Positions 1,756 to 54,665 of a DNA stretch of 64,000 nucleotides are shown one piece after another. The stretch is from Burkholderiales bacterium. Its GTDB lineage: Bacteria; Pseudomonadota; Gammaproteobacteria; Burkholderiales; SG8-39. The notes under the pieces are model-generated. The model was not told the DNA's origin and did not search any database. It saw only the letters and a list, made by a program, of their open reading frames with translations. Numbering within the stretch: the stretch's first letter is position 1; every line of letters begins with the position of its first letter. The DNA is taken from assembly GCA_035286595.1 (NCBI GenBank), contig DATEDA010000069.1:10497-74496 (forward strand), written 5' to 3'. The translations under genes and the position numbers were made by a program.

Positions 1756-1817
1756 GGGAGCCCGCCGGGCCGCCCCAAGGGCGAACCCCGAGCGCGTCGC
1801 GCGAGGGTAGTCCAATG
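1756..1817 (+). repeat. Degenerate copy of the ~60-nt sense-oriented repeat unit (family shared with 15577-15704 and 46517-46593)
   Basis: gGGAGCCCGCCGGGCCGCCCCAAGGGCGAACCCCGAGCGCGTCGCGCGAGGGTAGTCCAATG is near-identical to the other units. The leading ATG is replaced by GGG and the trailing TGA by TGG. Confidence 0.85.
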
Positions 1818-14369: not shown

Positions 14370-14693
14370 TCATTCCCCCGGTCGCGTCTCGCGATGCGCG
14401 CCGCACTTCCAGCAGGTGTCGAACTGTCCCTCGAGCCACTCACGGCAGACGCCGCAGGTCCACGCCGGCGCCGGCGGCGGGGGCCGCCGCCAAGCCTCCA
14501 GAAGCGCCTCGGCGCGCGGCCGGTCGGACTCGCGCGACAGATGGAGCTCGAGCGCGCAGTCGATGAACGGGATCTCGCCGGCGAGCCGCGACAGCAGCTC
14601 GTTCTTCACCCAGCAGCGGATGCCTTCGGCCTCGAGGACGTTCTTGAGGTGATGGATCTCGAGCAGGTTGAGCGAGGTGAGCAGCGGCCTCAT
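14370..14693 (-). CDS. DUF2007-like small protein with C-terminal CxxC...CxxC zinc ribbon
   Basis: 107 aa from ATG 14693, which overlaps the rsgA stop as ATGA. It reads MRPLLTSLNLLEIHHLKNVLEAEGIRCWVKNE...CGVCREWLEGQFDTCWKCG. The upstream part of track ORF 14370..15275 is an off-frame shadow of rsgA. Confidence 0.7.
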   Translation of the reverse strand: MRPLLTSLNLLEIHHLKNVLEAEGIRCWVKNELLSRLAGEIPFIDCALELHLSRESDRPRAEALLEAWRRPPPPAPAWTCGVCREWLEGQFDTCWKCGAHRETRPGE

Positions 14694-15580
14694 CGGTGTG
14701 CGAGCTCGGCGTCGAGGATCCGGTGGAGGAGCTCGAGCCGCCGCGGGTGCACCGCGCCCGCTTCGGCGGCGTCGCGCACCGCGCAACCGGGCTCGGTGCG
14801 GTGCCGGCAGTCGCGAAAGCGGCAACGTCCGGCAAAAGGTGCGAGCTCGGGAAAGCCGCGCTCGATCTCGGCCGGGGTCAGGTGTGCGAGGCCGAACTCC
14901 TGCACGCCCGGCGAATCGATGATCGCGCTCGCCGCGTCGAGACGGTAGAGGCGGGTGTGGCTGGTCGTGTGCCGGCCGGAATCGAGGAAGCGCGAGATCT
15001 CCTGCGTCGTCGCCTGGGCATCTGGAACCAGCGCATTGACAAGCGTCGATTTGCCCATCCCCGACTGCCCGATCAGCACTGTAGTCTCCCCGGCCAGGCG
15101 GCTGCGCAGCGCGGCGACGTCCCGCTTCGCACTGGTCTCGACGAGCGGGTAGCCCGCGCGGGCGAGCGGGGCGAGTCGCTCCCGGAGCGCAACCGTCGCC
15201 GCCTCGAGGTCGGTCTTGTTGACCACGATGAGACCGCGCATGCCCTGCGCGCTGGCGGCGACGAGGACGCGGCACACGAGCTCATCGCTCACGCTCGGCT
15301 CGCCAGCAGTGATCACCGCGACTTGCGTCGCGTTCGCTGCGATCAGCTTGCGGCGATGCGGCGCGGCGCGCAGGAACAGCGTCGCGCGCGGGTCGGGCGC
15401 CTCGATCACGCCTTCGCCCCGGCCGGTGCGCTTGACGAGCACCCGGTCGCCGCACGCGTACTGCGCGTGACGACCGCGCGCGAGGCAGGGAATGAAGTCG
15501 CCGCCGCGGCTCTCGACGAGAAACCGCCTGCCGTACGCGGCCACCACCTGGCCGGAAACGTGCGCGGCGTGCTGGCTCAT
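14690..15580 (-). CDS. rsgA: Ribosome small-subunit-dependent GTPase A
   Basis: 296 aa. Circularly permuted GTPase motifs VVNKTDL and GQSGMGKSTLVNAL. C-terminal zinc knuckle CRFRDCRHRTEPGCAV. Confidence 0.92.
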   Translation of the reverse strand: MSQHAAHVSGQVVAAYGRRFLVESRGGDFIPCLARGRHAQYACGDRVLVKRTGRGEGVIEAPDPRATLFLRAAPHRRKLIAANATQVAVITAGEPSVSDELVCRVLVAASAQGMRGLIVVNKTDLEAATVALRERLAPLARAGYPLVETSAKRDVAALRSRLAGETTVLIGQSGMGKSTLVNALVPDAQATTQEISRFLDSGRHTTSHTRLYRLDAASAIIDSPGVQEFGLAHLTPAEIERGFPELAPFAGRCRFRDCRHRTEPGCAVRDAAEAGAVHPRRLELLHRILDAELAHR

Positions 15581-15642
15581 CGGACTACCCTCGCGCTTGA
15601 CCGCGCTCGGGGTTCGCCCTTGGGGCGGCCCGGCGGGCTCAT
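15577..15642 (-). CDS. Candidate repeat-encoded mini-ORF 2 (21 aa, [21 protein letters not shown])
   Basis: ATG at 15642 is preceded by GAGGG plus 7 nt. Its TGA overlaps the rsgA ATG as ATGA. Translation is unproven. Confidence 0.3.
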   Translation of the reverse strand: MSPPGRPKGEPRARSSARVVR

Positions 15643-15704
15643 TGGACTACCCTCGCGGCTACGGCCGCTCGGGGTTCGCCCTTGGGGCGGCCCGGCGGGC
15701 TCAC
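15639..15704 (-). CDS. Candidate repeat-encoded mini-ORF 1 (21 aa, [21 protein letters not shown])
   Basis: The GTG at 15704 lies 1 nt after the M48 stop. Its TGA overlaps the next ATG as ATGA. Translation is unproven. Confidence 0.3.
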   Translation of the reverse strand: MSPPGRPKGEPRAAVAARVVQ

Positions 15705-15705
15705 G

Positions 15706-16962
15706 CTAACCCGCGGCCCGCGACAGCTCCTGCAGGCGCGCGATTCGCAGCGCCGCCGGCGGATGCGAGTCGTAGAACGCGGAGTGCACCGGGTCAGGCG
15801 TCAGCGTCGCGGCGTTGTCCTGGTACAGCTTGACCAGCGCCCGGATGAGCTCCTGCGCGTCCGCGTGGCTCGCCGCGTACGCGTCGGCTTCGTACTCGTG
15901 GCGGCGGGAGTAGAGGCTGCCGATCGGCTGCAGCAAGAACGTGAACACCGGCACGACCATGAGGAAGAGGAGGAGCGCAACTGCGGTGCTCCGTCGCTCG
16001 ACGCCGAGTGCCTCGTAGAACCAGGGCTGGTCGATCAGATAGCCGAGCGCCGCGAGGAACGCGAGGCTGCCGAGGAACAGCCAGGCGATCCGCTTCCATA
16101 CGTGGTGGCGCCTGAAGTGACCGAGCTCGTGGGCGAGCACCGCCTCGACCTCGCCCGGTCCGAGCCGGGAGAGCAGGGTGTCGAAGAACACGATCCGCTT
16201 CGCGGCGCCGAAACCCGTGAAGTACGCGTTGCCGTGGCTCGAGCGCTTGGAGCCGTCCATCACGAACAGCCCCTTCGAGCGAAACCCGCACTTCACGAGC
16301 AGCCGCTCGATGCGGTCCTTGAGCGCCAGGTCTTCCAGCGGCGTGAATCTGTTGAATAGCGGGGCAATCAGGGTCGGATAGACGACCAACATGACGAGGT
16401 TGAATCCGATCCACGTGAGCCAGACCCAGAGCCACCACAAGCTGCCCATCTGCGCCATCAGCCACAGCACGGCGAGCATCAGTGGCACGCCGATCGCGAG
16501 GCCGAGCACGATGCTCTTCGCGAGGTCAGCGACGAAGAGCGCCGGCGTCATGCGATTGAAGCCGAACCGCGCCTCGATGACGAAGGTCCGGTAGATGGAG
16601 AGTGGCAAGTCGATCGCTCCGGTGATCGCGGCGACGCTCAGGATGAGCGCGATCCCGTGCGCGTAGCCCGCCGGGTCGAACACCCGCGCCCAGAGGTCGA
16701 ACAGCGCCTGCAGCCCACCGCCGAGCGTGAAGGCGAGCAGCACGACCGCCGAGAGCAGCGCATCGACGCTGCCGAACCGGGTCTTCGCGGCGGTGTAGTC
16801 GGCGGCTTTCTGGTGGGCAGGGAGCGCCACGCTCTCGGCGAAACCGGGCGGGACCGCGTCGCGGTTCGCGGTCACGTAGCGGATGTGGCGGGACGCGAGC
16901 CAGATCCGCGTCGCAGTGGCGATTGCGAGCGCGGCGAGGAAGGCGGTCGTGAAGGGATGCAT
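15706..16962 (-). CDS. M48 family zinc metallopeptidase (Ste24/HtpX-like, multi-TM)
   Basis: Frame of ORF 15706..16995. Zinc motif [10 protein letters not shown] and several TM segments. The track start is a TTG, so I prefer ATG 16962 (MHPFTTAF...). Confidence 0.9.
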
Positions 16963-17026
16963 GCGGCGGGACAGGTGCCGTGTGAGACAATCCAATTCTA
17001 GTTGGACCGCCGCAAAATCAAAAGCG

Positions 17027-25433: not shown

Positions 25434-25868
25434 ATGCTCACCAAGGAAATCCTCCGCATCAAGGGCTCGGTCCTGTATACGATCGCCCCCGAAGGCCGCC
25501 TGTGGGACGCCGTAGGCACGATGGTCGAGAACGACATCGGCTCGCTCGTGGTGATGGACCGCGGGCGACTCGCGGGCATGCTCACGTTCCGCGAGGTCCT
25601 CGCCGCGCTGCACCGCTTCCACGAGGGCTTCGCGCGGCTCAAGGTCGAGGACGTGATGGTGAAGGAGCCGAAGTCCGTCGGCCCCGAGATGGAGGTGGAC
25701 GACCTGCGTCGCGTGATGATCGACACGCACGTCCGGTACATGCCGGTCATGGACGGCGCGACCCTGACCGGCGTGCTGTCCTTCCACGACGTGGCGAAGG
25801 CGGTCCTCGAAGAGCAGAGCTTCGAGAATCGCATGCTGAAGGGCTACATCAAGAACTGGCCCGAGTGA
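25434..25868 (+). CDS. CBS-domain pair protein
   Basis: 144 aa with two CBS repeats (GSLVVMD...GMLTFREV and YMPVMD...GVLSFHDV). Confidence 0.85.
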   Translation: MLTKEILRIKGSVLYTIAPEGRLWDAVGTMVENDIGSLVVMDRGRLAGMLTFREVLAALHRFHEGFARLKVEDVMVKEPKSVGPEMEVDDLRRVMIDTHVRYMPVMDGATLTGVLSFHDVAKAVLEEQSFENRMLKGYIKNWPE

Positions 25869-26010
25869 GCGTTGGCGCCCAGGGCTCGCCGCCGGCTCCG
25901 GGGCGGCGGGTGTGCGGTTCCGTCGGGGTTCCGGCCGGAACAGAGCTTCGCCAAGCCGCGTCTGCCCCGACGCCCGCCCGATCTCGAAACAGACCGCCTG
26001 AGGCCGGCAG

Positions 26011-27897
26011 ATGACCGAGCGCAGCCAGTTCAGGCTCCTCGGCGAGCGGCGCTTCGGGCCGTTCTTCGCCACCCAGCTCCTGGGCGCGTTCAACGACAAC
26101 GTGTTCAAGAACGCGCTCGTCATCCTGATCGCGTTCCAGACCGCCGGTCTCGCCGGCCTCGCGCCGGAGGTGACGGTCAACCTCGCCGCGGGCGTGTTCA
26201 TCCTGCCGTTCTTCCTGTTCTCCGCGACGGCCGGGCAGCTCGCCGACAAGTACGACAAGGCGCGGATCATGCGGCTGGTGAAGCTCGCGGAGATCGGGAT
26301 CATGGCGCTCGCAGCCATGGGATTCGTCCGCGGCGATATCGTCACCCTGTTCGTTGCCCTGTTCCTGATGGGCGTCCACTCGACCGTGTTCGGGCCGGTG
26401 AAGTACTCGATTCTCCCGCAGACCCTCGACGATCGGGAGCTCGTCGGCGGCAACGCGCTGGTCGAGACCGGCACGTGGGCGGCGATCCTTCTCGGTACCA
26501 TTCTCGGCGGGCTCCTCGTCGCGCGGCCGTCCGGCCCGACCCTGCTCGTCCCAGCGGTGACCATCGCCGTTGCAGTCCTCGGCTATGGGGCGAGCCGCTT
26601 CGTCCCCGCGGCGCCGCCGGTCGCGCCAGACCTCGTGCTGAGTTGGAACCCCGTCGCCGAGACGTGGCGCAACTTGCGGTTCCTGCGCCAGAACCGGACG
26701 GTATTCCTGTCGATCCTCGGCGTGTCCTGGTTCTGGTTCTACGGCGCCCTGCTGCTCGCCCAGTTCCCGACGTTCGCGAAGACCTGGCTCGGCGGCGACG
26801 CCAGCGTCGCGACGGCGCTCCTCGCGGTCCTCACGGTCGGCATCGGCGCGGGCTCGCTTGCCTGCGAGCGCATGTCGGGACACAAGGTGGAGATCGGGCT
26901 CGTCCCGTTCGGATCGATCGGCTTGACGGTGTTCGCGCTCGACCTCTTCCTCGCGACCCCGTCGGTTCCGCCCGAGGCAACGAGCGGCGTCGGGGCGTTT
27001 CTCGCCAGGCCCGACGCGATCCGGGTGCTCGCCGACGTCGGTCTGATCGGGCTCTTCGGCGGGTTCTTCATCGTGCCGCTCTACGCATTGATTCTCAGCC
27101 GCTCGGATCCCGCGCACCAGTCGCGGATCATCGCCGGCAACAACATCGTGAACGCTGCGTTCATGGTCGGCGCAGCGCTGATCGGCGCGGCGTTCCTCCA
27201 GCTCGGCGCGACGGTGCCGCAGCTCTTCCTGCTGACCGCGCTCCTGAACGCCGCCGTGGCGGTGTTCATTTATTTGCTGGTGCCCGAGTTCCTGATGCGG
27301 TTCCTCGCATGGCTGCTCATCCACTCGGTGTATCGGCTGGAGAAATCCGGCCTCGAGCACATCCCGGAGCGAGGCGCGGCGCTGCTCGTCTGCAATCACG
27401 TCAGCTTCGTCGACGCCATCGTGATCATGGCCGCCTGCCGCCGCCCGATCCGGTTCGTGATGGATCACCGCATCTTCAAGACGCCGGTGCTGAGCTTCAT
27501 CTTCCGCACCGGCGGCGCGATTCCGATCGCTTCCCGCAAGGAGGATCCGGAGATGATGGAACGGGCGTTCGCCGAGGTCGCGGCCGCGCTGCGCGCGGGT
27601 CAGCTCGTCGGCATCTTTCCCGAGGGGCGCCTCACGGACTCGGGCGAGATCCAGCCGTTCCGGCCCGGGATCCAGCGCATCCTCGACGAGACCCCGGTGC
27701 CGGTCGTGCCGATGGCGCTGCGCGGCCTGTGGGGCAGCTTGTTCAGCCGCATGAAGGGGCAGGCGATGACCAGACCGTTCCGGCGCGGGCTCTTCAGCCG
27801 GATCGGGCTCGTCGCCGCGCCACCGGTCGGGCCGGAACTCGTCACGCCGGAAGGGCTGCAGGCTCAGGTCCAGACGTTGCGCGGCGACTGGCGCTGA
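26011..27897 (+). CDS. Fusion of an MFS (LplT-like lysophospholipid transporter) with a PlsC-type acyltransferase domain
   Basis: 628 aa. About 12 TM segments with an LplT-like N-terminus, then the acyltransferase HX4D motif CNHVSFVDA and the FPEGRLT motif. There is no adenylation (AMP-binding) domain. Confidence 0.85.
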   Translation: MTERSQFRLLGERRFGPFFATQLLGAFNDNVFKNALVILIAFQTAGLAGLAPEVTVNLAAGVFILPFFLFSATAGQLADKYDKARIMRLVKLAEIGIMALAAMGFVRGDIVTLFVALFLMGVHSTVFGPVKYSILPQTLDDRELVGGNALVETGTWAAILLGTILGGLLVARPSGPTLLVPAVTIAVAVLGYGASRFVPAAPPVAPDLVLSWNPVAETWRNLRFLRQNRTVFLSILGVSWFWFYGALLLAQFPTFAKTWLGGDASVATALLAVLTVGIGAGSLACERMSGHKVEIGLVPFGSIGLTVFALDLFLATPSVPPEATSGVGAFLARPDAIRVLADVGLIGLFGGFFIVPLYALILSRSDPAHQSRIIAGNNIVNAAFMVGAALIGAAFLQLGATVPQLFLLTALLNAAVAVFIYLLVPEFLMRFLAWLLIHSVYRLEKSGLEHIPERGAALLVCNHVSFVDAIVIMAACRRPIRFVMDHRIFKTPVLSFIFRTGGAIPIASRKEDPEMMERAFAEVAAALRAGQLVGIFPEGRLTDSGEIQPFRPGIQRILDETPVPVVPMALRGLWGSLFSRMKGQAMTRPFRRGLFSRIGLVAAPPVGPELVTPEGLQAQVQTLRGDWR

Positions 27898-40041: not shown

Positions 40042-43020
40042 ATGTTAGTTACCTCGATCGAAGTCCCCGAGGGGGGCACGGTGGGAAACCGAACGACTAC
40101 AACGAGACTGCTGGCCCTTCTGACGCTCGCGTTGCTGCCGTTGGACGTGCTGGCGGCCGGTCTGGGGCGGCTCGCCGTTTTGTCCGGCCTGGGTCAGCCG
40201 CTGCGCGCCGAGATCGAGGTCGTGTCCCTGCAGCGGGGCGAAGCCGAGTCGCTGAGCGCGAGGATCGCGACGCCCGACGCGTTCCGGGAAGCGGGTGTCG
40301 AGTATGGAGCGGCCGTACCGCGTGTCCGCACCGTGCTCGAGCGCCGGCCCAACGACCGGTACGTGATCGTCCTCTCGACCCCGCAGCCGGTCGAAGAACC
40401 GTTCCTCGATCTGCTCGTGGAATTGAACTGGGCCTCGGGTCGGCTCGTGCGGCAGTACACGTTCCTGCTCGATCCCGTGGACTACCGGGGGCCCCAGCCG
40501 ATCGCCGCCGCACCGTCGCGGCCTGCGACGACCGAGGTGCGGCCGGTCGAAGCGCCACGGCCCCCGGAAGTCAGCGCGGCCGCACCGGCCGCACCCGCTG
40601 TTGCGCCGCCTGCGGCGTCCGCAGAGCCGGCGCCGTCGGCGCCTGTGGCGCCACCACCCGCCGAGACGCCAGCCGCGCAAACGCCAGCCACACCGGCACC
40701 GGCACCGGCACCGGCTGCGCCAGCGTCGGCGGCGCAAGCACCGGCCGATGCGCCCAAGCTGGCGAGCGAGCCCGTCGCCACCTATGAAGTGCAGAAGGGC
40801 GACACGCTGAGCAAGGTCGCGTTGCAGTACAAACCCGAGGGCGTCACGCTGCAGCAGATGCTCGTGGCCCTTTATCGCGCGAACGAGGACGCGTTCATCC
40901 AGAAGAACATGAACCTCGTCCGCGCGGGGCGCGTGCTCACGATCCCGGACCGCGAGGCCGTCGAAGCCGTCGCCCCCGCCGATGCCGGGAAGCTCTTCGT
41001 CGCGCAATGGCAGGACTTCAACGAATACCGCGCCAAGCTCGGCGGGGCAATCGCGGCGGCGCCGGCCCAGACCGAGGCGCCGCAGCAGCGCGCGGCCGGC
41101 CGGATCACCGAGCCGCCCGAGGCGACGGCAGCCGCGCCGAAGGCCGCACCGCGCGACGAGCTGCGGGTCTCGAAGGCGGACGATGCGGCGAAGAGCGCGA
41201 AAGCCGCCGCCGCGGCCCGGGCGGACGATCTCGCGGCGCGCGAGCGCGCGCTCCAGGAAGCGAGCTCGCGCGTCGGCGACCTGGAGCGAAACGTCAAGGA
41301 TCTCCAAGGTCTCGTCGAACTGAAGAACAAGCAGCTTGCCGACTTGCAGAAGCAGGCGGAGGCGGTGAAGGGTGCAGCGGCGAAGGCCACCGACGCTGAA
41401 GCCGCGAAGGCGGCGGCGGCGAAGGCCACCGCAGCGGCGAAGGCCACCGACGCTGAAGCCGCGAAGGCGGCGGCGGCGAAAGTCGCCGAGGCGGAGGCCG
41501 CGAAGGCTGCAGCGGCGAAGGCCACCGCGGCGGAGGCCGCGAAAGCCGCCGCAGCGGCGGCTGCCAAGGCGCCCGAGCCGGCGAAGGCCGTCGAGGTCGC
41601 GAAGGCGCCCGAGGCGCCCAAGGCCGCCGAGCCGGCACCGACCGCGCCCGCAAAGGCGCCCGAAGCGCCGAAAGCCGAGGCGCCCAAAGCCCCCGCGCCG
41701 CCCAAGGCTGCGGCGGCACCGAAGAAGCCCGCGCCGCCCCCGCCTCCCGAGCCGAGTCTCGTCGAAGCGATCCTGGACGAGCCGCTCTACCTCGCCGGCG
41801 GAGGGGGCGGGATCCTCGCCCTCCTGATCGGGGGGTATCTGTGGCGAAAAAAGCGCAGCGCCAAGCTGGAAAATAGCCTGCTTGGCGTGACGACCACCGA
41901 TTCGAGCTCGGTCTTCGGCAGCACTGGCGGGCGCAGCATCGACACGGGTGGCAGCTCGCTCCAGACCGACTTCAGCCAGAGCGGGATCGGCGCGATCGAC
42001 ACCGACGAGGTCGATCCGGTCGCGGAAGCGGACGTGTACATGGCCTACGGCCGCGACGCCCAGGCCGAGGAGATCCTCAAGGAAGCGCTGCTGAAGGACC
42101 CCAACCGCCAGACGGTGCGCGTGAAGCTCCTCGAGATCTACGCGGCGCGCAAGGACCTGAAGGCGTTCGAGACCACGGCCGGAGAGATCTACGCCGCGAG
42201 CGGCGGTCAGGGGCCCGAGTGGCAGAAGGCGATCGAGCTCGGGCTCTCGATCGACCCGAGCAATCCGATGTACGGCGGGGGCGGCGGCCGGCGGGAGGCT
42301 GGTGGCCGCCCGCCCGAGCGCGACACCGTGGTGCTCCCGGCCGCCGGTGGCGCAGCGGCCGCGATGGCGAGCGACCTCGCGTTCGACCTGGCCGGTAGCA
42401 AGGCACCGCCGTCGATCGACTTCGATCTGGGTGGCGGGGGCCGGGGTGCCGCCGCGGCAGTGCCCGACCTCGCGCTCGACGTGGCGAGCCAGGCGCCGGC
42501 GGATCTCGGCTTCGACCTCAACCTCGGTGGCGACTCGCAGAAGCCCGCCGTCGAGGAGGCGAGCGATTTCTCCCCGAGCGGCACGTTCATCATGGACGCG
42601 GCCACGAAGAAAGCGGTCAGCGACATGGTCGAGGCGCAGGGCGCGCCCGGGTCACTCGAGATCGATTTCGAGCTGCCGGGGACGAAGGGCGGCGCGACGC
42701 CCGGGGAGCAGACCGCCAGGATGCAGGCCGCACAGCCGGCCAACGTCACCGAGATCGACTTCAAGCTCGGTGAGCCGACCAAGCCGGCCGCGGCCGCAAT
42801 GGATCTCGGCGGGATCAGTTTCGATCTCGGCAAGGGCGGCGGCGAGGGTGCGCCGGTCGACGCCCGCTGGCAGGAGGTGGCCACCAAGCTCGACCTCGCC
42901 AAGGCGTACGAGGAGATGGGGGACAAGGATGGTGCGCGCGAGCTGCTGAACGAGGTCCTGAAGGAGGGCGACGCGGCCCAGCAGCAGCAGGCGAAGCAGA
43001 TGCTCGCGGCAATCAGGTAG
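40042..43020 (+). CDS. fimV: FimV/HubP-family polar peptidoglycan-binding protein
   Basis: 992 aa track ORF; GTG 40081 (preceded by GAGGGG) is the more likely start. FimV N-terminal motif LGRLAVLSGLGQPLRAEIEV. LysM (YEVQKGDTLSKVA...AGRVLTIP). A/K/P/E-rich repeats. One TM segment. FimV C-terminal motif LDLAKAYEEMGDKDGARELL. Confidence 0.9.
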   Translation: MLVTSIEVPEGGTVGNRTTTTRLLALLTLALLPLDVLAAGLGRLAVLSGLGQPLRAEIEVVSLQRGEAESLSARIATPDAFREAGVEYGAAVPRVRTVLERRPNDRYVIVLSTPQPVEEPFLDLLVELNWASGRLVRQYTFLLDPVDYRGPQPIAAAPSRPATTEVRPVEAPRPPEVSAAAPAAPAVAPPAASAEPAPSAPVAPPPAETPAAQTPATPAPAPAPAAPASAAQAPADAPKLASEPVATYEVQKGDTLSKVALQYKPEGVTLQQMLVALYRANEDAFIQKNMNLVRAGRVLTIPDREAVEAVAPADAGKLFVAQWQDFNEYRAKLGGAIAAAPAQTEAPQQRAAGRITEPPEATAAAPKAAPRDELRVSKADDAAKSAKAAAAARADDLAARERALQEASSRVGDLERNVKDLQGLVELKNKQLADLQKQAEAVKGAAAKATDAEAAKAAAAKATAAAKATDAEAAKAAAAKVAEAEAAKAAAAKATAAEAAKAAAAAAAKAPEPAKAVEVAKAPEAPKAAEPAPTAPAKAPEAPKAEAPKAPAPPKAAAAPKKPAPPPPPEPSLVEAILDEPLYLAGGGGGILALLIGGYLWRKKRSAKLENSLLGVTTTDSSSVFGSTGGRSIDTGGSSLQTDFSQSGIGAIDTDEVDPVAEADVYMAYGRDAQAEEILKEALLKDPNRQTVRVKLLEIYAARKDLKAFETTAGEIYAASGGQGPEWQKAIELGLSIDPSNPMYGGGGGRREAGGRPPERDTVVLPAAGGAAAAMASDLAFDLAGSKAPPSIDFDLGGGGRGAAAAVPDLALDVASQAPADLGFDLNLGGDSQKPAVEEASDFSPSGTFIMDAATKKAVSDMVEAQGAPGSLEIDFELPGTKGGATPGEQTARMQAAQPANVTEIDFKLGEPTKPAAAAMDLGGISFDLGKGGGEGAPVDARWQEVATKLDLAKAYEEMGDKDGARELLNEVLKEGDAAQQQQAKQMLAAIR
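41374..41487 (+). repeat. 57-bp tandem duplication inside fimV (19-aa unit AAAKATDAEAAKAAAAKAT)
   Basis: Units at 41374-41430 and 41431-41487 are identical over the first 51 nt. Degenerate A/K/E copies continue to about 41570. Confidence 0.75.
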
Positions 43021-43892: not shown

Positions 43893-44512
43893 GGACGAGA
43901 GTCAAGATCTGCGGCATCACGTCGGTCGCCGACGGTCTGGCCGCGGCGCGGGCTGGCGCCGACGCGATCGGGCTCATCTTCTATCCGCCGAGCCCACGCC
44001 TCGTCACGCTCGGGCGGGCGGCAGAAATCGCCGCCGGCCTGCCGCCCTTCGTCGCCCGCGTGGCGGTATTCGTGAACCCTTCTCCGGAGCACGTGGCCGA
44101 GGTGGTCGCCGCGTGCCGGCCGGGTCTCCTGCAGTTCCACGGCGAAGAGACCCCGATGTTCTGCCGGAGTTTCGGCATCCCGTACCTGCGGGCGGTGCGG
44201 GTGAGATCCGGGGTCGATTTGCTAGAATCCCTGGCTGCTTATGAGGATGCCGCGGGCTGGTTGCTCGACGCTTATCGTGACGACCTGTACGGCGGCACCG
44301 GCGAGGCCTTCGACTGGAACCTGATCCCGCAGCGCCTCGCCCGTCCGGTGATCCTTTCGGGGGGGCTCGATGCCGAGAACGTGGGTGAGGCGGTCCGCCG
44401 CGTGCGGCCGTGGGCGGTCGACGTCTCGAGCGGGGTCGAGTCGGCGAAGGGTATGAAGGACGGGCGGCTGATCGCCGCGTTCATCGCTGGAGTCCGCAAT
44501 GCAGATGCATGA
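43889..44512 (+). CDS. trpF: Phosphoribosylanthranilate isomerase
   Basis: ATG 43889 overlaps the truA stop as ATGA. Motifs VKICGIT and [16 protein letters not shown]-terminal part VDVSSGVE. Confidence 0.95.
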
Positions 44513-45698
44513 TCTTCCGGACAGTCGCGGGCACTTCGGGCCCTACGGCGGCGTCTTCGTCGCCGAGACGCTCGTTCACGCGCTCGACGAGTTGCGCGCC
44601 GCCTACGAGCGCCACCGCAAGGATCCCGAGTTCGTCGCCGAGCTCCGCTACGACCTGAAGCATTACGTCGGCCGCCCGAGCCCGGTATACCACGCCAAGC
44701 GCTGGTCGCAGCTGCTCGGCGGCGCGCAGGTGTTCCTCAAGCGCGAGGACCTGAACCACACCGGCGCGCACAAGATCAACAACACCGTCGGCCAGGCGCT
44801 GCTCGCGCGGCGCATGGGCAAACCGCGCGTGATCGCCGAGACCGGCGCCGGGATGCACGGCGTCGCGGCTGCCACCGTCGCCGCGCGTTACGACATGGAA
44901 TGCGTGGTGTACATGGGGGCGGAGGACGTCAAGCGTCAGGCGGCGAACGTCTACCGGATGAAGGCCCTCGGCGCCACCGTCGTGCCGGTCGAGTCGGGCT
45001 CGAAAACGCTCAAGGATGCGCTGAACGAGGCGATGCGCGACTGGGTGACGAACGTCCACAACACGTTCTACATCATCGGCACCGTCGCCGGTCCGCATCC
45101 GTACCCGATGATGGTGCGCGACTTCCAGCGCGTGATCGGACGCGAGTGCCTCGAGCAGATGCCCGAGGTCGCCGGCCGCCAGCCCGATGCCGTCATCGCG
45201 TGCGTCGGCGGCGGGTCCAACGCGATCGGCATCTTCTACGACTACATTCCGCATGCGAACGTGCGCCTGATCGGCGTCGAGGCGGGCGGCTGCGGCCTCG
45301 CGACCGGCAAGCACGCGGCCTCGCTCAACGCCGGGAAGCCGGGCGTGCTCCACGGCAACCGCACCTACCTGCTGCAGGACGAGCACGGCCAGATCATCGA
45401 GACGCACTCGATCTCGGCCGGGCTCGATTACCCGGGCGTCGGGCCCGAGCACGCGTGGCTGAAGGACTCGGGGCGCGCCGAGTACGTCACGATCGACGAC
45501 GACGAGGCGCTGAAGGCGTTCCATGACTGCTGCCACTACGAGGGGATCATCCCCGCGCTCGAGTCGTGCCACGCGCTCGCCTACGCGGCCAAGATCGCGC
45601 CGACCATGGCGCGTGACCGGATCCTGCTGGTGAACCTGTCCGGGCGCGGCGACAAGGACATGCACACCGTCGCCGAGAGATCGGGAATCAAGCTCTAG
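44499..45698 (+). CDS. trpB: Tryptophan synthase beta chain
   Basis: 399 aa with [19 protein letters not shown] and GGGSNAIG. Overlaps trpF by 14 nt. Confidence 0.97.
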
Positions 45699-45706
45699 CT
45701 AGGCCG

Positions 45707-46534
45707 ATGTCCCGCATCTCGACCATCTTCGAGCACCTCGCGCGCGCCCGGCGCAAGGCCCTCATCCCGTTCATTACCGCGGGCGATCCGTCGCCGCCGG
45801 CGACGGTGCCGCTCATGCACGCGCTCGTGAAGGCCGGGGCCGATGTCATCGAGCTCGGCGTGCCGTTCTCCGACCCGATGGCCGACGGGCCGGTGATCCA
45901 GCGCTCGAGCGAGCGCGCCCTGAGGCACGGAATCAGCCTGGAGACGGTGCTTGGCTACGCCACGGAGTTCCGGAAGCGCGACGACGCGACCGGCATCGTG
46001 CTCTTCGGCTATGCGAATCCGATCGAGGCGATGGGCGTCGAGCGGTTCGTCGAGCGCTCGCGCGCGGCGGGAGTCGACGGCGTTTTGGTCGTGGACTACC
46101 CGCCGGAGGAGTGCGGCCCGTTCGCGGAGTTGGTGAAGAAGAATGGAATGGATCTCATTTTCCTTCTCGCCCCCACCTCCACCGAATCGCGCATCGAGCG
46201 GATTGTCGGCCTGGCGAGCGGCTACATCTACTACGTCTCCCTGCGCGGGGTCACCGGCGCGTCGCACCTCGACGTTGCCGACGTCGCGGCCAGGCTCGCC
46301 GCGATCCGCCGCAAGACCTCGCTTCCGGTCGGCGTCGGTTTCGGGATTCGCGACGGCGAGACCGCGCGCGCGGTCGGTGCGGTGGCCGACGCGGTGGTGA
46401 TCGGCAGCCGTCTGATTCAGGAGATGGAGGAAGCGCCGCCCGGCGCAGCGATCGAGCGCGCGGGCGCGTTCCTCGCCGGGATCCGTCGGGCGCTCGACGG
46501 CGCGGCGCAGGTTGCGGCGAGGGTAGTCCAATGA
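45707..46534 (+). CDS. trpA: Tryptophan synthase alpha chain
   Basis: 275 aa with [31 protein letters not shown] and VSLRGVTG. The last 6 codons and the stop lie in repeat-element sequence. Confidence 0.95.
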
Positions 46535-46589
46535 GCCCGCCGGGCCGCCCCAAGGGCGAATCCCGAGCGCGTAGCGCGAGGGCAGTCGA

Positions 46590-46593
<4 letters not shown>
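46517..46593 (+). repeat. Partial unit plus one full ~60-nt repeat unit at the trpA/accD junction
   Basis: GCGAGGGTAGTCCAATGAGCCCGCCGGGCCGCCCCAAGGGCGAATCCCGAGCGCGTAGCGCGAGGGCAGTCGAATGA. Same family as 1756-1817 and 15577-15704. Confidence 0.9.
46531..46593 (+). CDS. Candidate repeat-encoded mini-ORF (20 aa, [20 protein letters not shown])
   Basis: Its ATG overlaps the trpA TGA as ATGA, and its TGA overlaps the accD ATG as ATGA. Translation is unproven. Confidence 0.3.
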
Positions 46594-47453
<860 letters not shown>

Positions 47454-47480: not shown

Positions 47481-48758
47481 ATGGACCTCGCCGGCTGGCT
47501 CGCGTACATCGAGCGGCAGCACCCGCAGGCGATCGCGCTCGGGCTCGACCGGGTGCGGGCGGTGCTCGACCGGCTCGCGACCCCGAAGCCCTGCCCGATC
47601 CTCACCGTGGGCGGCACCAACGGCAAGGGATCGACCTGCGCCGTGATCGAGTCGATCCTGCTCGCCGCCGGCTACCGCGTGGGCTGCTACACCTCGCCGC
47701 ATCTCCTGCGCTACAACGAGCGGGTGCGGGTGAACGGCCGCGAGGCCGACGACGCCGCGCTCGCTGCGGCGTTCCAGGAGATCGACGCCGCCCGTGGCGG
47801 CACCGCGTTGACGTACTTCGAGTTCGGCACGCTCGCGGCATGGCTTATCTTCGCGCGCGCGAAACCCGACGCGCTGGTGCTCGAGATCGGACTCGGCGGC
47901 CGGCTCGATGCGGTGAACGCGTTCGAGCCCGACTGCGCGGTCCTCACCAGCGTCGCGCTCGATCACCACGAGTACCTCGGCGATACGCGCGAGACGATCG
48001 GCTGGGAGAAGGCGCATATCTTCCGGCCCGCAACGCCCGCCGTTGTCGGTGATCCGACCCCGCCGCAGACCGTGCTCGACCACGCGCGCGAGATCGGGGC
48101 GAGCCTCCAGCTGATTGGCCGGGATTTCGGCTACCACGCCGAGCCTCGACAGTGGCGGTACTTCGGACCCGGCGGGGCGCGGTCGGGGCTCGCCTACCCC
48201 GCGCTGCGTGGGGCAAGACAGCTCGCGAACGCGGCCTGCGCCATCGCCGCGCTCGACAGCCTCCGCGAACGGCTGCCGTTGGGGGTGCAGGACATCCGCC
48301 GCGGGCTCGCCGCGATCGAACTCCCGGGGCGCTTCCAGGTCCTGCCCGGGCGCCCTACGGTCGTCCTGGACGTCGCTCACAACCCCGAGGCTGCGGCGGT
48401 GCTGGCGGAGAGCCTCGCCGGGATGGAGCGGTACCGGCGCACGCTCGCCGTCATCGGGATGCTGCGCGACAAGGACATCCCGGAAGTGTGCCGGGCATTG
48501 CGCGGCCGGATCGATCGCTGGTACGCCGCGACCCTCGACAACCCGCGCGGCGCCACCGCCGAGGAGGTCGAGCAGGGGATCGTCCGCAGCGGCGCCGGCG
48601 GCGAGGTCCGGCGCTTCGCGTCGCCTCGCGAAGCGCTCGCTGCGGCGCAGGAAGACGCCGGGGAAGGTGATAGAATCGTCGCGTTTGGTTCCTTCTACAC
48701 CGTGGCGGAGGTGATGGCCGCGCGCGCCGCGACACCGCGGAGCCCAGATGCGAGGTAA
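47481..48758 (+). CDS. folC: Bifunctional folylpolyglutamate synthase / dihydrofolate synthase
   Basis: 425 aa with P-loop VGGTNGKGST, LTYFEFGT and VLDVAHNPEAA. Confidence 0.95.
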   Translation: MDLAGWLAYIERQHPQAIALGLDRVRAVLDRLATPKPCPILTVGGTNGKGSTCAVIESILLAAGYRVGCYTSPHLLRYNERVRVNGREADDAALAAAFQEIDAARGGTALTYFEFGTLAAWLIFARAKPDALVLEIGLGGRLDAVNAFEPDCAVLTSVALDHHEYLGDTRETIGWEKAHIFRPATPAVVGDPTPPQTVLDHAREIGASLQLIGRDFGYHAEPRQWRYFGPGGARSGLAYPALRGARQLANAACAIAALDSLRERLPLGVQDIRRGLAAIELPGRFQVLPGRPTVVLDVAHNPEAAAVLAESLAGMERYRRTLAVIGMLRDKDIPEVCRALRGRIDRWYAATLDNPRGATAEEVEQGIVRSGAGGEVRRFASPREALAAAQEDAGEGDRIVAFGSFYTVAEVMAARAATPRSPDAR

Positions 48759-53586: not shown

Positions 53587-54081
53587 TCAGCCGGCGACCT
53601 CCGTGCGCTCGATCACCACGTCCTCGAGCGGCACGTCCCCGTGCGCGCCGCGGCGTCCGGTCTTGACGCCCTTGATCCGGTCGACCACGTCCTGCCCCTC
53701 AACGACGCGGGCGAACACGCAGTAGCCCCACCCCTGGGGGGTGGGGACGGTATGGTCGAGAAAGCCGTTGTCGTTGACGTTGATGAAGAACTGGGCGGTC
53801 GCCGAGTGCGGGTCGGAGGTGCGCGCCATCGCGACCGTGTAGCGGGCGTTCTTGAGCCCGTTCGCGGCCTCATTCTTCACCGCCGTCTTGGTGGGCTTCT
53901 GCTTCATCCCCGGCTCGAAGCCTCCGCCCTGGATCATGAAGCCGTCGATCACGCGGTGGAAGACCGTGTTGGCGTAGTGCCCGCCCTCGACGTAGGCCAG
54001 GAAGTTCTTGACGGTCTCCGGCGCGCGCTGGGCGTCGAGCTCGAGGGTGATGGTGCCGAGATTGGTGTGCAGCTTGACCAC
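53587..54081 (-). CDS. ppiB: Peptidyl-prolyl cis-trans isomerase B (cytoplasmic cyclophilin)
   Basis: 164 aa with [15 protein letters not shown] and [10 protein letters not shown]. No signal peptide. Confidence 0.93.
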
Positions 54082-54092
54082 GAGCGCCTCCG

Positions 54093-54665
54093 CTATCTCT
54101 TCGCCGCGACGATGGCCGCGGATTCGATGATCACCGGATCGCGCGGCACGTTCTGGTGCCCCCGGGCGTCCCCGGTCGGCAGCTTGGCGATCTTCTCGAC
54201 CACGTCCATTCCCGAGACGACCTTGCCGAAGACCGCGTAGCCGTAGCCCTGCGCCGTGGCCCCGCGGAAGTTGAGAAAGTCGTTGTCCTTGAGGTTGATG
54301 AAGAACTGCGCGCTCGCCGAGTGCGGATCCGGCGTACGCGCCATGGCGACGGTGCCGTAGTCGTTCTTCAGACCGTTCGCGGCCTCGTTCTCGACCGAGG
54401 CGCGGGTCGGCTTCTGCTGCAGGTCCTTGTTGAAGCCGCCGCCCTGGATCATGAAGCCGGGGATGACGCGGTGGAAGCTCGTGCCGTTGTAATGGCCGTC
54501 CTTCACGTACTGCAGGAAGTTCGCCACCGTCTTCGGCGCCTTGTCCGGGTAGAGCTCGATGACGATCGCACCGTGGTTGGTCCGGAGCTCGACCCGAGGG
54601 TCGGCGGCGAGCGCGGCGTGCGCGGTGGCGAGCGCGAGTCCGAGCGCAATGAGCAGGCTACGCAA
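54093..54665 (-). CDS. ppiA: Peptidyl-prolyl cis-trans isomerase A (periplasmic cyclophilin)
   Basis: 190 aa. Signal peptide [20 protein letters not shown], then [15 protein letters not shown]. Confidence 0.9.

Follow-up and report, generated by a model that had tools for sequence, protein, structure and literature searches.

The stretch of DNA analysed here (64,000 nucleotides (nt) of contig DATEDA010000069.1, NCBI GenBank assembly GCA_035286595.1, from a Burkholderiales bacterium; hereafter the window) carries a short repeat element at the junction of the genes trpA and accD. The segment 46517-46593 consists of one complete unit of this repeat together with the fused 3' end of a second unit. 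With a probability of about 0.65, we regard the repeat as a short form (59-62 nt) of the Betaproteobacterial repeat element (BRE) which colonises start codons, mainly NTGA overlaps of a stop and a start codon inside operons, in a manner compatible with translation. In all likelihood the element is selfish or close to neutral DNA, persisting since coupled expression is left unbroken, and accD does not seem to need the unit.

The trpA-accD junction and its history

The gene trpA (tryptophan synthase alpha, 275 amino acids (aa)) is an open reading frame (ORF) at 45707-46534, and its homologues, at up to 98% identity, carry PF00290. The gene accD (acetyl-CoA carboxylase carboxyltransferase beta, 287 aa) lies at 46590-47453 and was assigned from orthologues with the Pfam families PF17848 and PF01039 and from the junction survey below; its native start is ATGAGCTGG. 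Together with trpB (44499-45698, same operon as trpA) and folC (47481-48758, same operon as accD) these genes are co-oriented on the + strand, in an operon region of 69% GC.

As a first-pass annotation of the window had stated, trpA ends GCG GCG AGG GTA GTC CAA TGA (A-A-R-V-V-Q-stop), with the TGA at 46532-34. An overlapping ATG (46531-33) opens a mini-ORF of 20 codons (46531-46593, + strand), referred to below as the relay ORF, and the TGA of the relay ORF (46591-93) overlaps the accD ATG (46590-92). We confirmed these statements from the sequence. The bridging of the two genes by one repeat unit was equally well founded, as the unit supplies the trpA stop, the relay ORF and the accD Shine-Dalgarno (SD) sequence, which is GAGGG at 46578-82, 7 nt 5' of the accD ATG.

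The complete unit has 59 nt, belongs to the frame-shifting subtype described below and covers 46531-46589 (+), as judged from alignments within the window and the family and from an nhmmer match (E=1e-17). Directly upstream, at 46517-46530 (+), the 3' end of a second, truncated unit (GCGAGGGTAGTCCA) is fused in frame to trpA. This segment matches the unit end at 15656-15637 (-) exactly, falls within a partial nhmmer match (46513-46533, positions 44-64 of the hidden Markov model) and is also recognised by comparison with the loci L205, L201 and L206 of relatives. Its first six positions (46517-46522, GCGAGG) are common to the native trpA tail and the native SD sequence; the unambiguously element-derived part of trpA is 46523-46534 (GTAGTCCAATGA, V-V-Q-stop), the last 12 nt of the gene. 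No promoter-like or terminator-like site was found between trpB and accD. An accD promoter inside the unit was rejected on the lack of a sigma-70-like match, which is weak negative evidence only.

Further copies are present in the window. The 20-mer GCGAGGGTAGTCCAATGAGC, spanning the end of trpA, occurs five times in the window at three or fewer mismatches; the chance expectation is 0.01 and none of 100 shuffled sequences reached five. With a profile of the unit, nhmmer detected four full units and one partial unit with E-values of 1e-17 to 1e-19, the full matches being at 1758-1817 (+), 15703-15640 (-), 15641-15578 (-) and 46532-46592 (+). Two tandem 62-nt units (15581-15704, - strand) are located between an M48 peptidase gene (15706-16995) and rsgA (14690-15580), which are co-oriented, and form the chained mini-ORFs GTG...ATGA...ATGA-GCCAG, with GTG at 15704 and ATGA at 15642-39 and 15580-77. 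The size of this array is identical across strains sharing an identical RsgA protein, and no copy-number variation was seen there. A solitary 59-nt unit (1756-1814, + strand) lies in the 3' region of a transglycosylase-like gene (1055-1744) and faces a convergent aminotransferase gene; GGG replaces its ATG, and it ends ATGGGC without a TGA.

The first-pass annotation had pointed out that AARVVQ matches the C-terminus of the first mini-ORF at the rsgA locus and that accD and rsgA, the two genes served by the repeat, both begin ATGAGC. The match is real and the shared hexamer is present, but the restriction to two served genes does not hold. Since the copy at 1756-1814 is situated between convergent genes and lacks both start and stop codon, the repeat is not merely a device serving downstream genes.

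A metagenome scan with TrpA returned mostly distant relatives (53-79% identity) that served as outgroups and not for recent history. About 45 of 80 more distant junctions read xxxTGAGCTGG; in them the accD ATG overlaps the stop of trpA and is followed by AGC as second codon. Empty sites are also found in closer relatives. The loci L201 and L202 (loci are given by our own handles) are 93-95% identical to the window at the DNA level over 6.8 kb and carry no unit; their native TrpA end is ...GTGGCGAAGCAAGCATGAGCTGG, and the L201 junction reads ...GCAAGCATGAGCTGG. In L119 the site is empty as well, and the TrpA tail is of the same length and of unrelated sequence.

Among the filled junctions, L205 has two units before ATGAGCTGG and a native TrpA end, ...GCGGCGAGGCGCGCATGA (...AARRA). 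Native TrpA ends are likewise seen in L209, with one diverged unit, and in L206, with one internally deleted unit. The window, L199/200 and L203/204 have one unit and a hybrid TrpA end, ...GCGGCGAGG-GTAGTCCAATGA (VVQ or AVR). Hybrid ends without any unit occur in L208 (...AARATQ) and in L207 (...ERAARAVQ). The unit is thus absent, truncated, single or doubled at this junction among close relatives; the first-pass annotation had asked whether it would be present, absent or multiplied.

The ancestral junction was already an ATGA overlap, and therefore the element preserved the coupling and did not create it. This overturns the earlier proposal that the two consecutive overlaps were created entirely by the element, which instead duplicates the arrangement. 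Insertion at the hexamer ATGAGC, also proposed, fits the empty sites in L201 and in the distant junctions.

TrpA has 274-275 aa throughout the close relatives (274 without the unit, 275 in the window), and more distant TrpA proteins of 265-266 aa lack the entire tail. As the length is 274-275 aa everywhere among the close relatives, the element replaced about three native residues and did not add six. The first-pass annotation had asked whether TrpA normally ends about six residues earlier; it does not, and the relatives without a unit possess the same ...QVAAR/...VAAK tail. Of the six residues AARVVQ that had been ascribed to the element, VVQ and the stop are derived from it. The AAR (GCGGCGAGG) is native, is retained in L205 before the two units and is shared by orthologues without the repeat; VVQ is not, so that the refuting condition named in the first-pass annotation has a mixed outcome.

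The TrpA tail is older than the element, as L119 shows. An origin of the whole 9-10 residue tail from the element was considered and rejected for the window, given the unrelated tail of the same length in L119 and the native end before intact units in L205. The exception is L207, where about 30 nt of the tail resemble the hairpin H2 (see below) and the unit tail and look unit-derived.

The simplest history would begin with insertion of units at the ATGAGC of an ancestral trpA...xxA-TGA-GCTGG junction, followed by expansion of the array and then by deletions at short homologies (GCGAGG, CCGAG, TCCAATGAGC) which would have kept trpA in frame up to the ATGA. The VVQ-stop would stem from a deletion between the native GCGAGG (TrpA codons A-R and native accD SD sequence) and the GCGAGGG of the first unit. 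Such a later deletion explains the hybrid TrpA end best.

A second pair of empty and filled sites was found between the window and L050. Position 25868 of the window reads GAGTGAGCG, and L050 carries a unit there; position 26011 reads ATGACCGAG, and L050 has a unit followed by ATGAGCGAG. The latter site is ATGACC when empty and ATGAGC when filled. In L050 (3246-4215) a gene of about 0.9 kb is bracketed by two copies of the repeat: it starts at the terminal TTGAGC of one unit, and its stop codon and the GTG of the following unit overlap. The window at 25868-26011 has neither the L050 units nor the gene, and an unrelated spacer of 140 nt is found instead. Gene gain or loss at this place may be marked by the repeats or may involve them.

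A family of start-codon repeats

Loci of the family were collected by scanning representative genomes for the exact 19-mer GGGCCGCCCCAAGGGCGAA, which matched at least 118 stretches. The unit is present in at least 110 loci, all of them from Burkholderiales among the matches listed, and eight matched stretches without a unit are chance matches in other phyla. Carriers include Rubrivivax, Ideonella, Rhizobacter, Piscinibacter, Methylibium, Rhodoferax, Variovorax, Polaromonas, Acidovorax, Bordetella, Orrella and Casimicrobiaceae. Cultured strains with copies are Piscinibacter/Ideonella sakaiensis 201-F6, Methylibium sp. Root1272, Rhizobacter sp. SG703 and Bordetella ansorpii. Among the matches listed, the commonest form has 60 nt (ATGAGCCCGCCGGGCCGCCCCAAGGGCGAATACCGGAGTGCGCAGCACGAAGGTACTCCA, then GTGAGC) and is an open frame of 20 residues continuing into the next start codon. 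The form found in the window (59 or 62 nt) shows a one-base difference which shifts the frame, and its ORF is closed by the TGA within the ATGA that follows.

Arrays consist of direct repeats in a single orientation whose units overlap coding sequence; among the matches listed, 81 have one unit, 26 have two, five have three and one has five. The two ends of the unit, ATGAGCCCGCC... and ...GGTAGTCCA, are not mutually reverse-complementary. Terminal inverted repeats are thus absent, and the internal helices described below are not terminal. The largest array among the loci listed, with five 60-nt units, is located in L014 (5709-6005, - strand). Its internal boundaries are CATGCTCCC or CACGCTCCC and not NTGAGCCC, and our gene-finding heuristic detected no co-oriented gene on either side; this array may be non-coding or decaying.

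The second codon of the first unit is AGC in 105/113 arrays, and AGC follows the array in 66/93, the remainder being mostly one mismatch away. NTGAGC therefore flanks the arrays on both sides, whereas the empty accD site holds ATGAGC once; a target-site duplication and a fixed element end would both account for this. The pattern fits a target preference or microhomology-guided insertion.

The preference for stop/start junctions was evaluated in 92 arrays. In 54 of these, the array opens with an NTG that overlaps the TGA of the co-oriented upstream gene, against a background of at most 13% (binomial p=1e-24), and in a further 11 the upstream stop lies within 60 nt. As background we used the coding ORFs in the same loci which overlap a downstream gene, a value that is itself inflated because the element sites are included. 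A co-oriented ORF is found downstream of at least 66 and upstream of at least 71 of the 92 arrays, and nearly all copies are sense-oriented relative to the flanking genes. Some copies have neither start nor stop codon and are located after the last gene of an operon.

The length of the unit follows a reading-frame rule. Modulo 3 it is 0 in 65 units, 2 in 35 and 1 in 4, where the mod-0 units are open through the boundary in 61/65 cases and the mod-2 units stop on the overlapping NTGA in 31/35. Lengths of the frame-shifting subtype step by three (59, 62, 65), and the codon at the 3' boundary of terminal units is ATG, GTG or TTG in 88/93. Longer variants of about 71-78 nt also exist (in locus coordinates, L032 3578, L067 7024, L104 151, L109 1189 and L085 980), with an extra middle hairpin (e.g. 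CTCCCCCTCGGGGGGA) between the 5' core and H2. One unit of 71 nt and three of 74 nt were recorded, lengths that likewise leave a remainder of 2 on division by 3. The N-terminal 10 residues are common to all subtypes, and after residue 10 the two subtypes encode different, unrelated peptides.

RNAalifold, run on 89 distinct units, predicts two hairpins, H1 and H2. In the window, H2 covers 46562-46582 (+), reads CCC-GA-GCGC-(GUA)-GCGC-GA-GGG and holds the accD SD sequence GAGGG in its 3' strand. Compensatory changes are found in column 43/54, which is UA in 41 units, CG in 35, GC in 11 and broken in one; none of the 500 shuffles and none of the slid controls reached the covariation score of H2. 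Nearly every loop is G-N-A with a closing C-G pair, and tandem G.A mismatches flank the stem. The covariation alters the encoded residues (SAQH, SAQR, RAQP, NAKH). As the peptides of the subtypes diverge and the H2 changes replace residues, selection acts on the nucleic acid and the frame and not on the peptide.

The 5' structured region (46532-46560, + strand) may form either H1 or an alternative helix, P1. In H1, as predicted by RNAalifold, 46546-50 pairs with 46554-58 around a CAA loop. In P1, UGAGCCC at 46532-38 would pair with GGGCGAA at 46554-60 (unit positions 2-8 with 24-30) and would cover the start-codon region. The 19-mer search pattern fixes the H1 columns, and variation in the 5' half was therefore judged from units picked up only as neighbours. 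Unit position 7/25 is C-G in 127 units and G-C in six, and all six units with C25 have G7. In the 'UCA' variants P1 gains two pairs and H1 is broken. The natural variants are suggestive of P1 rather than H1; the two helices are mutually exclusive and could form a conformational switch. A further helix, of CCGG at unit positions 10-13 with the CCGG before H2, was dropped since the variants, judged by eye, do not covary.

Proposed translation through the unit and competing explanations

The features of the unit make it compatible with translation: its start codon and the stop of the preceding gene overlap, no stop codon interrupts it, an SD sequence of its own lies about 7 nt before the 3' end and it ends NTGAGC. 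A ribosome ending trpA would restart at 46531 on the relay ORF. Translation of the 20 codons would melt H2, which would otherwise hold the SD sequence, and the ribosome would terminate at the UGA at 46591-93 and restart on the overlapping accD AUG. The one-step coupling of trpA and accD would in this way become a two-step relay. Because the SD sequence, and perhaps the 5' start region, would be paired, initiation independent of upstream translation is expected to be weak and the coupling to be kept. The element would then persist because little harm is done.

Several points weigh against this explanation. Several families (Sphaerotilaceae-like, Comamonadaceae, Alcaligenaceae, Casimicrobiaceae) share a strongly conserved core, more so than would be expected of decaying junk, and this suggests either a function or a trans-acting partner that is itself conserved. 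No transposase or other mobilising activity was identified, where no search for a transposase gene near the copies was made. Taken alone, 46500-46600 is predicted to fold no more stably than sequence that has been shuffled (z=+1.05). The gene calls in the loci come from a crude heuristic based on ORFs and third-position GC content (GC3), and the counts of junctions, reading frames and boundary codons show a strong tendency and not exact frequencies. Related copies are not independent, which inflates the family counts, and collection by an exact 19-mer makes the 5' half conserved by construction.

The conservation of the core across genera speaks for a different explanation, in which the unit is an adaptive cis-regulatory RNA module. 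Its conserved P1/H1 and H2, with the GNA triloop and the tandem G.A pairs, would be bound by a conserved protein, RNase or small RNA, which would adjust how much downstream protein is made relative to upstream protein, or the segmental stability of the mRNA, at dozens of junctions, making the units a dispersed regulon. The covariation of H2 with its C-G-closed G-N-A loop, the sense orientation of almost all copies and the position of the SD sequence and start-codon region within predicted helices agree with such a module, and in Bordetella BRE-containing regions are transcribed as the small RNAs BprJ1/J2 (PMC3110155). However, presence and copy number of the unit vary at the same junction among genomes of about 93% identity, and the housekeeping genes that host it are unrelated to one another; both points make it less likely that a regulatory role is required. 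Copies without start and stop codons after the last gene of an operon also speak against the module. Rfam 15 gave no match in the whole window at gathering thresholds, and permissive E-value scans of the trpA-accD and M48-rsgA loci returned only chance-level miRNA matches. We consider a regulatory module unlikely.

The hairpins could instead matter in the DNA. Hairpins with a C-GNA-G triloop are unusually stable in DNA, and if they formed in single strands a hairpin-dependent recombinase (HUH/Y1-type or other) might recognise them and move the unit to NTGAGC, the translational features acting only as a filter on the insertions that survive. The NTGAGC on both sides of the arrays, and the empty and filled sites at accD and at window positions 25868 and 26011 against L050, agree with this mechanism. 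It is nevertheless improbable in our judgement: there are no terminal inverted repeats, no transposase gene was found near the copies (though none was searched for), and slippage and recombination alone can explain tandem arrays and microhomology deletions. The orientation bias, moreover, follows the genes, and BRE in Bordetella is not co-oriented with the replication fork (Hot et al., PMC3110155).

That the unit encodes a functional micropeptide or leader peptide controlling accD, for instance through a PPG motif sensing elongation factor P, is very improbable. A reading frame does exist that has a start codon, lies in an SD-like context and shows an ATGA overlap; its first 10 residues are common to all subtypes, and gene callers annotate 'hypothetical proteins' of 34-74 aa built from units. 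Beyond residue 10, however, the subtypes are read in different frames into unrelated peptides, and double changes which preserve the hairpin alter residues. PP is often replaced by TP, AP, PQ or PS, the copy at 1756 has no start codon, and unit peptides gave nothing above threshold against Pfam and NCBIfam. That the resemblance arose by chance, or that the trpA-accD junction was merely duplicated in tandem on the spot, might come to mind in a GC-rich region where SD sequences of the GCGAGG type recur, but this is refuted and virtually without weight in view of the five matches against 0.01 expected, the nhmmer E-values and the presence of the unit in at least 110 unrelated loci elsewhere.

Colonisation of start codons by a translation-compatible short BRE form thus remains our preferred explanation. 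A bolder version, which we put forward as speculative and rather doubtful, is that the short form is a translation-phase-aware element homing to NTGA(GC) junctions via its hairpin or microhomology, or that it has been co-opted as a handle for one trans-acting factor that sets the coupling strength at dozens of operon junctions. As such a handle, P1 and H2 may make downstream initiation strictly dependent on upstream translation. If either were true, it would be the first system of its kind described in proteobacteria and would explain the conservation of the core across families.

Some other repetitive sequences were seen in the window. Dense degenerate tandem repeats with periods of 9, 15, 24 and 39 nt at 41356-41714 encode Ala/Lys/Glu/Pro-rich sequence and are unrelated to the findings on trpA-accD; in related loci, a gene for a FimV_N-domain protein of about 1000 aa is found three genes upstream of trpB. 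At 231-392 there are AAG/GCC-rich short tandem repeats (periods 12-27 nt) which would encode Lys/Ala-rich repeats of histone-like type. Two direct repeats of 300 nt (53674-53973 and 54189-54488), 74% identical and 515 nt apart, are probably an internal or tandem gene duplication.

Relation to known repeats and implications

BRE was described by Hot et al. (2011, BMC Genomics 12:207, PMC3110155) as an element of about 90 base pairs (bp) in Bordetella (75-91 bp) with 'partial' forms of 60-40 bp, present in up to 29 copies (Polaromonas), in tandem, with variable copy number and sometimes overlapping or inside ORFs, and no function was proposed. A review of small repeats covers BRE together with the mycobacterial interspersed repetitive units (MIRU) and the Neisseria and Borrelia elements (PMC3184786). 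The repeat studied here resembles BRE in its host range (Alcaligenaceae, Comamonadaceae and relatives) and as a GC-rich direct tandem repeat of variable copy number in or at the edges of genes. It also occurs in many copies in Betaproteobacteria, in head-to-tail arrays of 1-5 units whose number varies between relatives.

When aligned with the B. pertussis BRE, the 74-78 nt variants (L067, L104) match over 37-46 nt, a score reached by none of 500 shuffles; with the 59-60 nt unit the alignment extends over only about 19 nt and is borderline (4-6 of 500 shuffles). The 74-78 nt variants begin with the same 30 nt as the 59-62 nt form and likewise have ATGAGC ends. Because these intermediates of about 71-78 nt bridge the short form to the Bordetella BRE, the unit of the window is treated as a short BRE subfamily. 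The Bordetella reference differs by its length of 75-91 bp, an extra middle hairpin (GCCCCCTCGGGGGGC) and flanks that are T-runs and not NTGAGC. With 59 and 62 nt and no middle hairpin, the window units fall outside the full-length range and fit the partial class of about 60-40 bp. The stop/start overlap, the frame rule, the covarying SD hairpin and the remodelling of the TrpA tail are absent from the BRE paper (PMC3110155) and from the other literature searched. A full-text search of the accessible papers with the exact DNA and peptide strings of the unit gave no paper, and a keyword search on start-codon repeats of Burkholderiales gave nothing.

By architecture, the closest analogue is MIRU. 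According to the accounts in PMC12548453 (a 2025 review citing Supply 1997) and PMC3184786, MIRUs insert at start codons, and the ORF of the repeat is coupled to the gene at a -4 spacing, an arrangement believed to keep the effect on expression small. Both elements are direct tandem repeats of 40-100 bp inside operons in sense orientation, have a unit ORF that overlaps the flanking stop and start (-4), show empty and filled sites among relatives and variable copy number, and insert at start codons with presumably little effect on expression. The units between trpA and accD and between the M48 gene and rsgA are intercistronic and follow the orientation of the operon, and a unit ORF with 4-nt overlaps at both ends is seen in the window. 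The MIRUs, however, are an unrelated actinobacterial sequence family, whereas the host here is a Burkholderiales bacterium of 69% GC, and the present element is an analogue and not a member. It also has an in-frame 60-nt subtype, each unit of which would add 20 residues to the protein encoded downstream.

Other small repeats are more distant. REP/BIME elements with RAYT transposases (PMC2817692) are likewise short GC-rich hairpin-forming repeats between operon genes with possible effects on mRNA, but they are imperfect palindromes in both orientations, often in inverted pairs, extragenic and not frame-phased; the arrays here are direct, in one sense orientation, frame-constrained and overlap coding sequence, and we do not assign them to REP/BIME. 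The missing terminal inverted repeats separate the units from MITEs. The Neisseria REP2 and Borrelia inverted-repeat sequences (PMC3184786) carry a promoter and sit in 5' intergenic regions, and are not described as overlapping an upstream stop or forming phase-keeping tandem arrays. Rickettsia palindromic elements, as summarised in PMC3184786 (Ogata 2000), are similar as selfish repeats tolerated in coding sequence via an open frame; they differ in sequence, size and host and are described there as inserting inside genes and not at stop/start junctions. In-frame fusion is also seen here, as the unit supplies C-terminal residues of TrpA and, by prediction, the 60-nt subtype supplies N-terminal extensions.

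The repeat has consequences for annotation. Gene callers will mis-assign starts at the units, add N-terminal extensions of 20 residues or call spurious proteins of 40-70 aa. Public gene calls (P0121-P0240) include many unnamed 'hypothetical proteins' of 34-74 aa which consist solely of two or three units and are probably annotation artefacts. A peptide search of the protein database gave short unnamed ORFs only and no long N-terminally extended proteins, which says little about how frequent annotated extensions are. C-terminal tails such as the ...VVQ of TrpA can likewise derive from the element, and copy-number differences between strains could serve as typing markers.

To our knowledge, MIRUs are so far the only well-known repeats that sit on start codons while keeping translation coupled. 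The enrichment at NTGA, the frame rule (0 or 2 mod 3) and the covarying SD hairpin suggest that, in a distant phylum, a subfamily of BRE behaves in a like manner. The units offer ready-made natural material for testing the coupling of termination and reinitiation, and if the element were targeted or regulatory, it would represent a new way for repeats to interact with the translation of operons.

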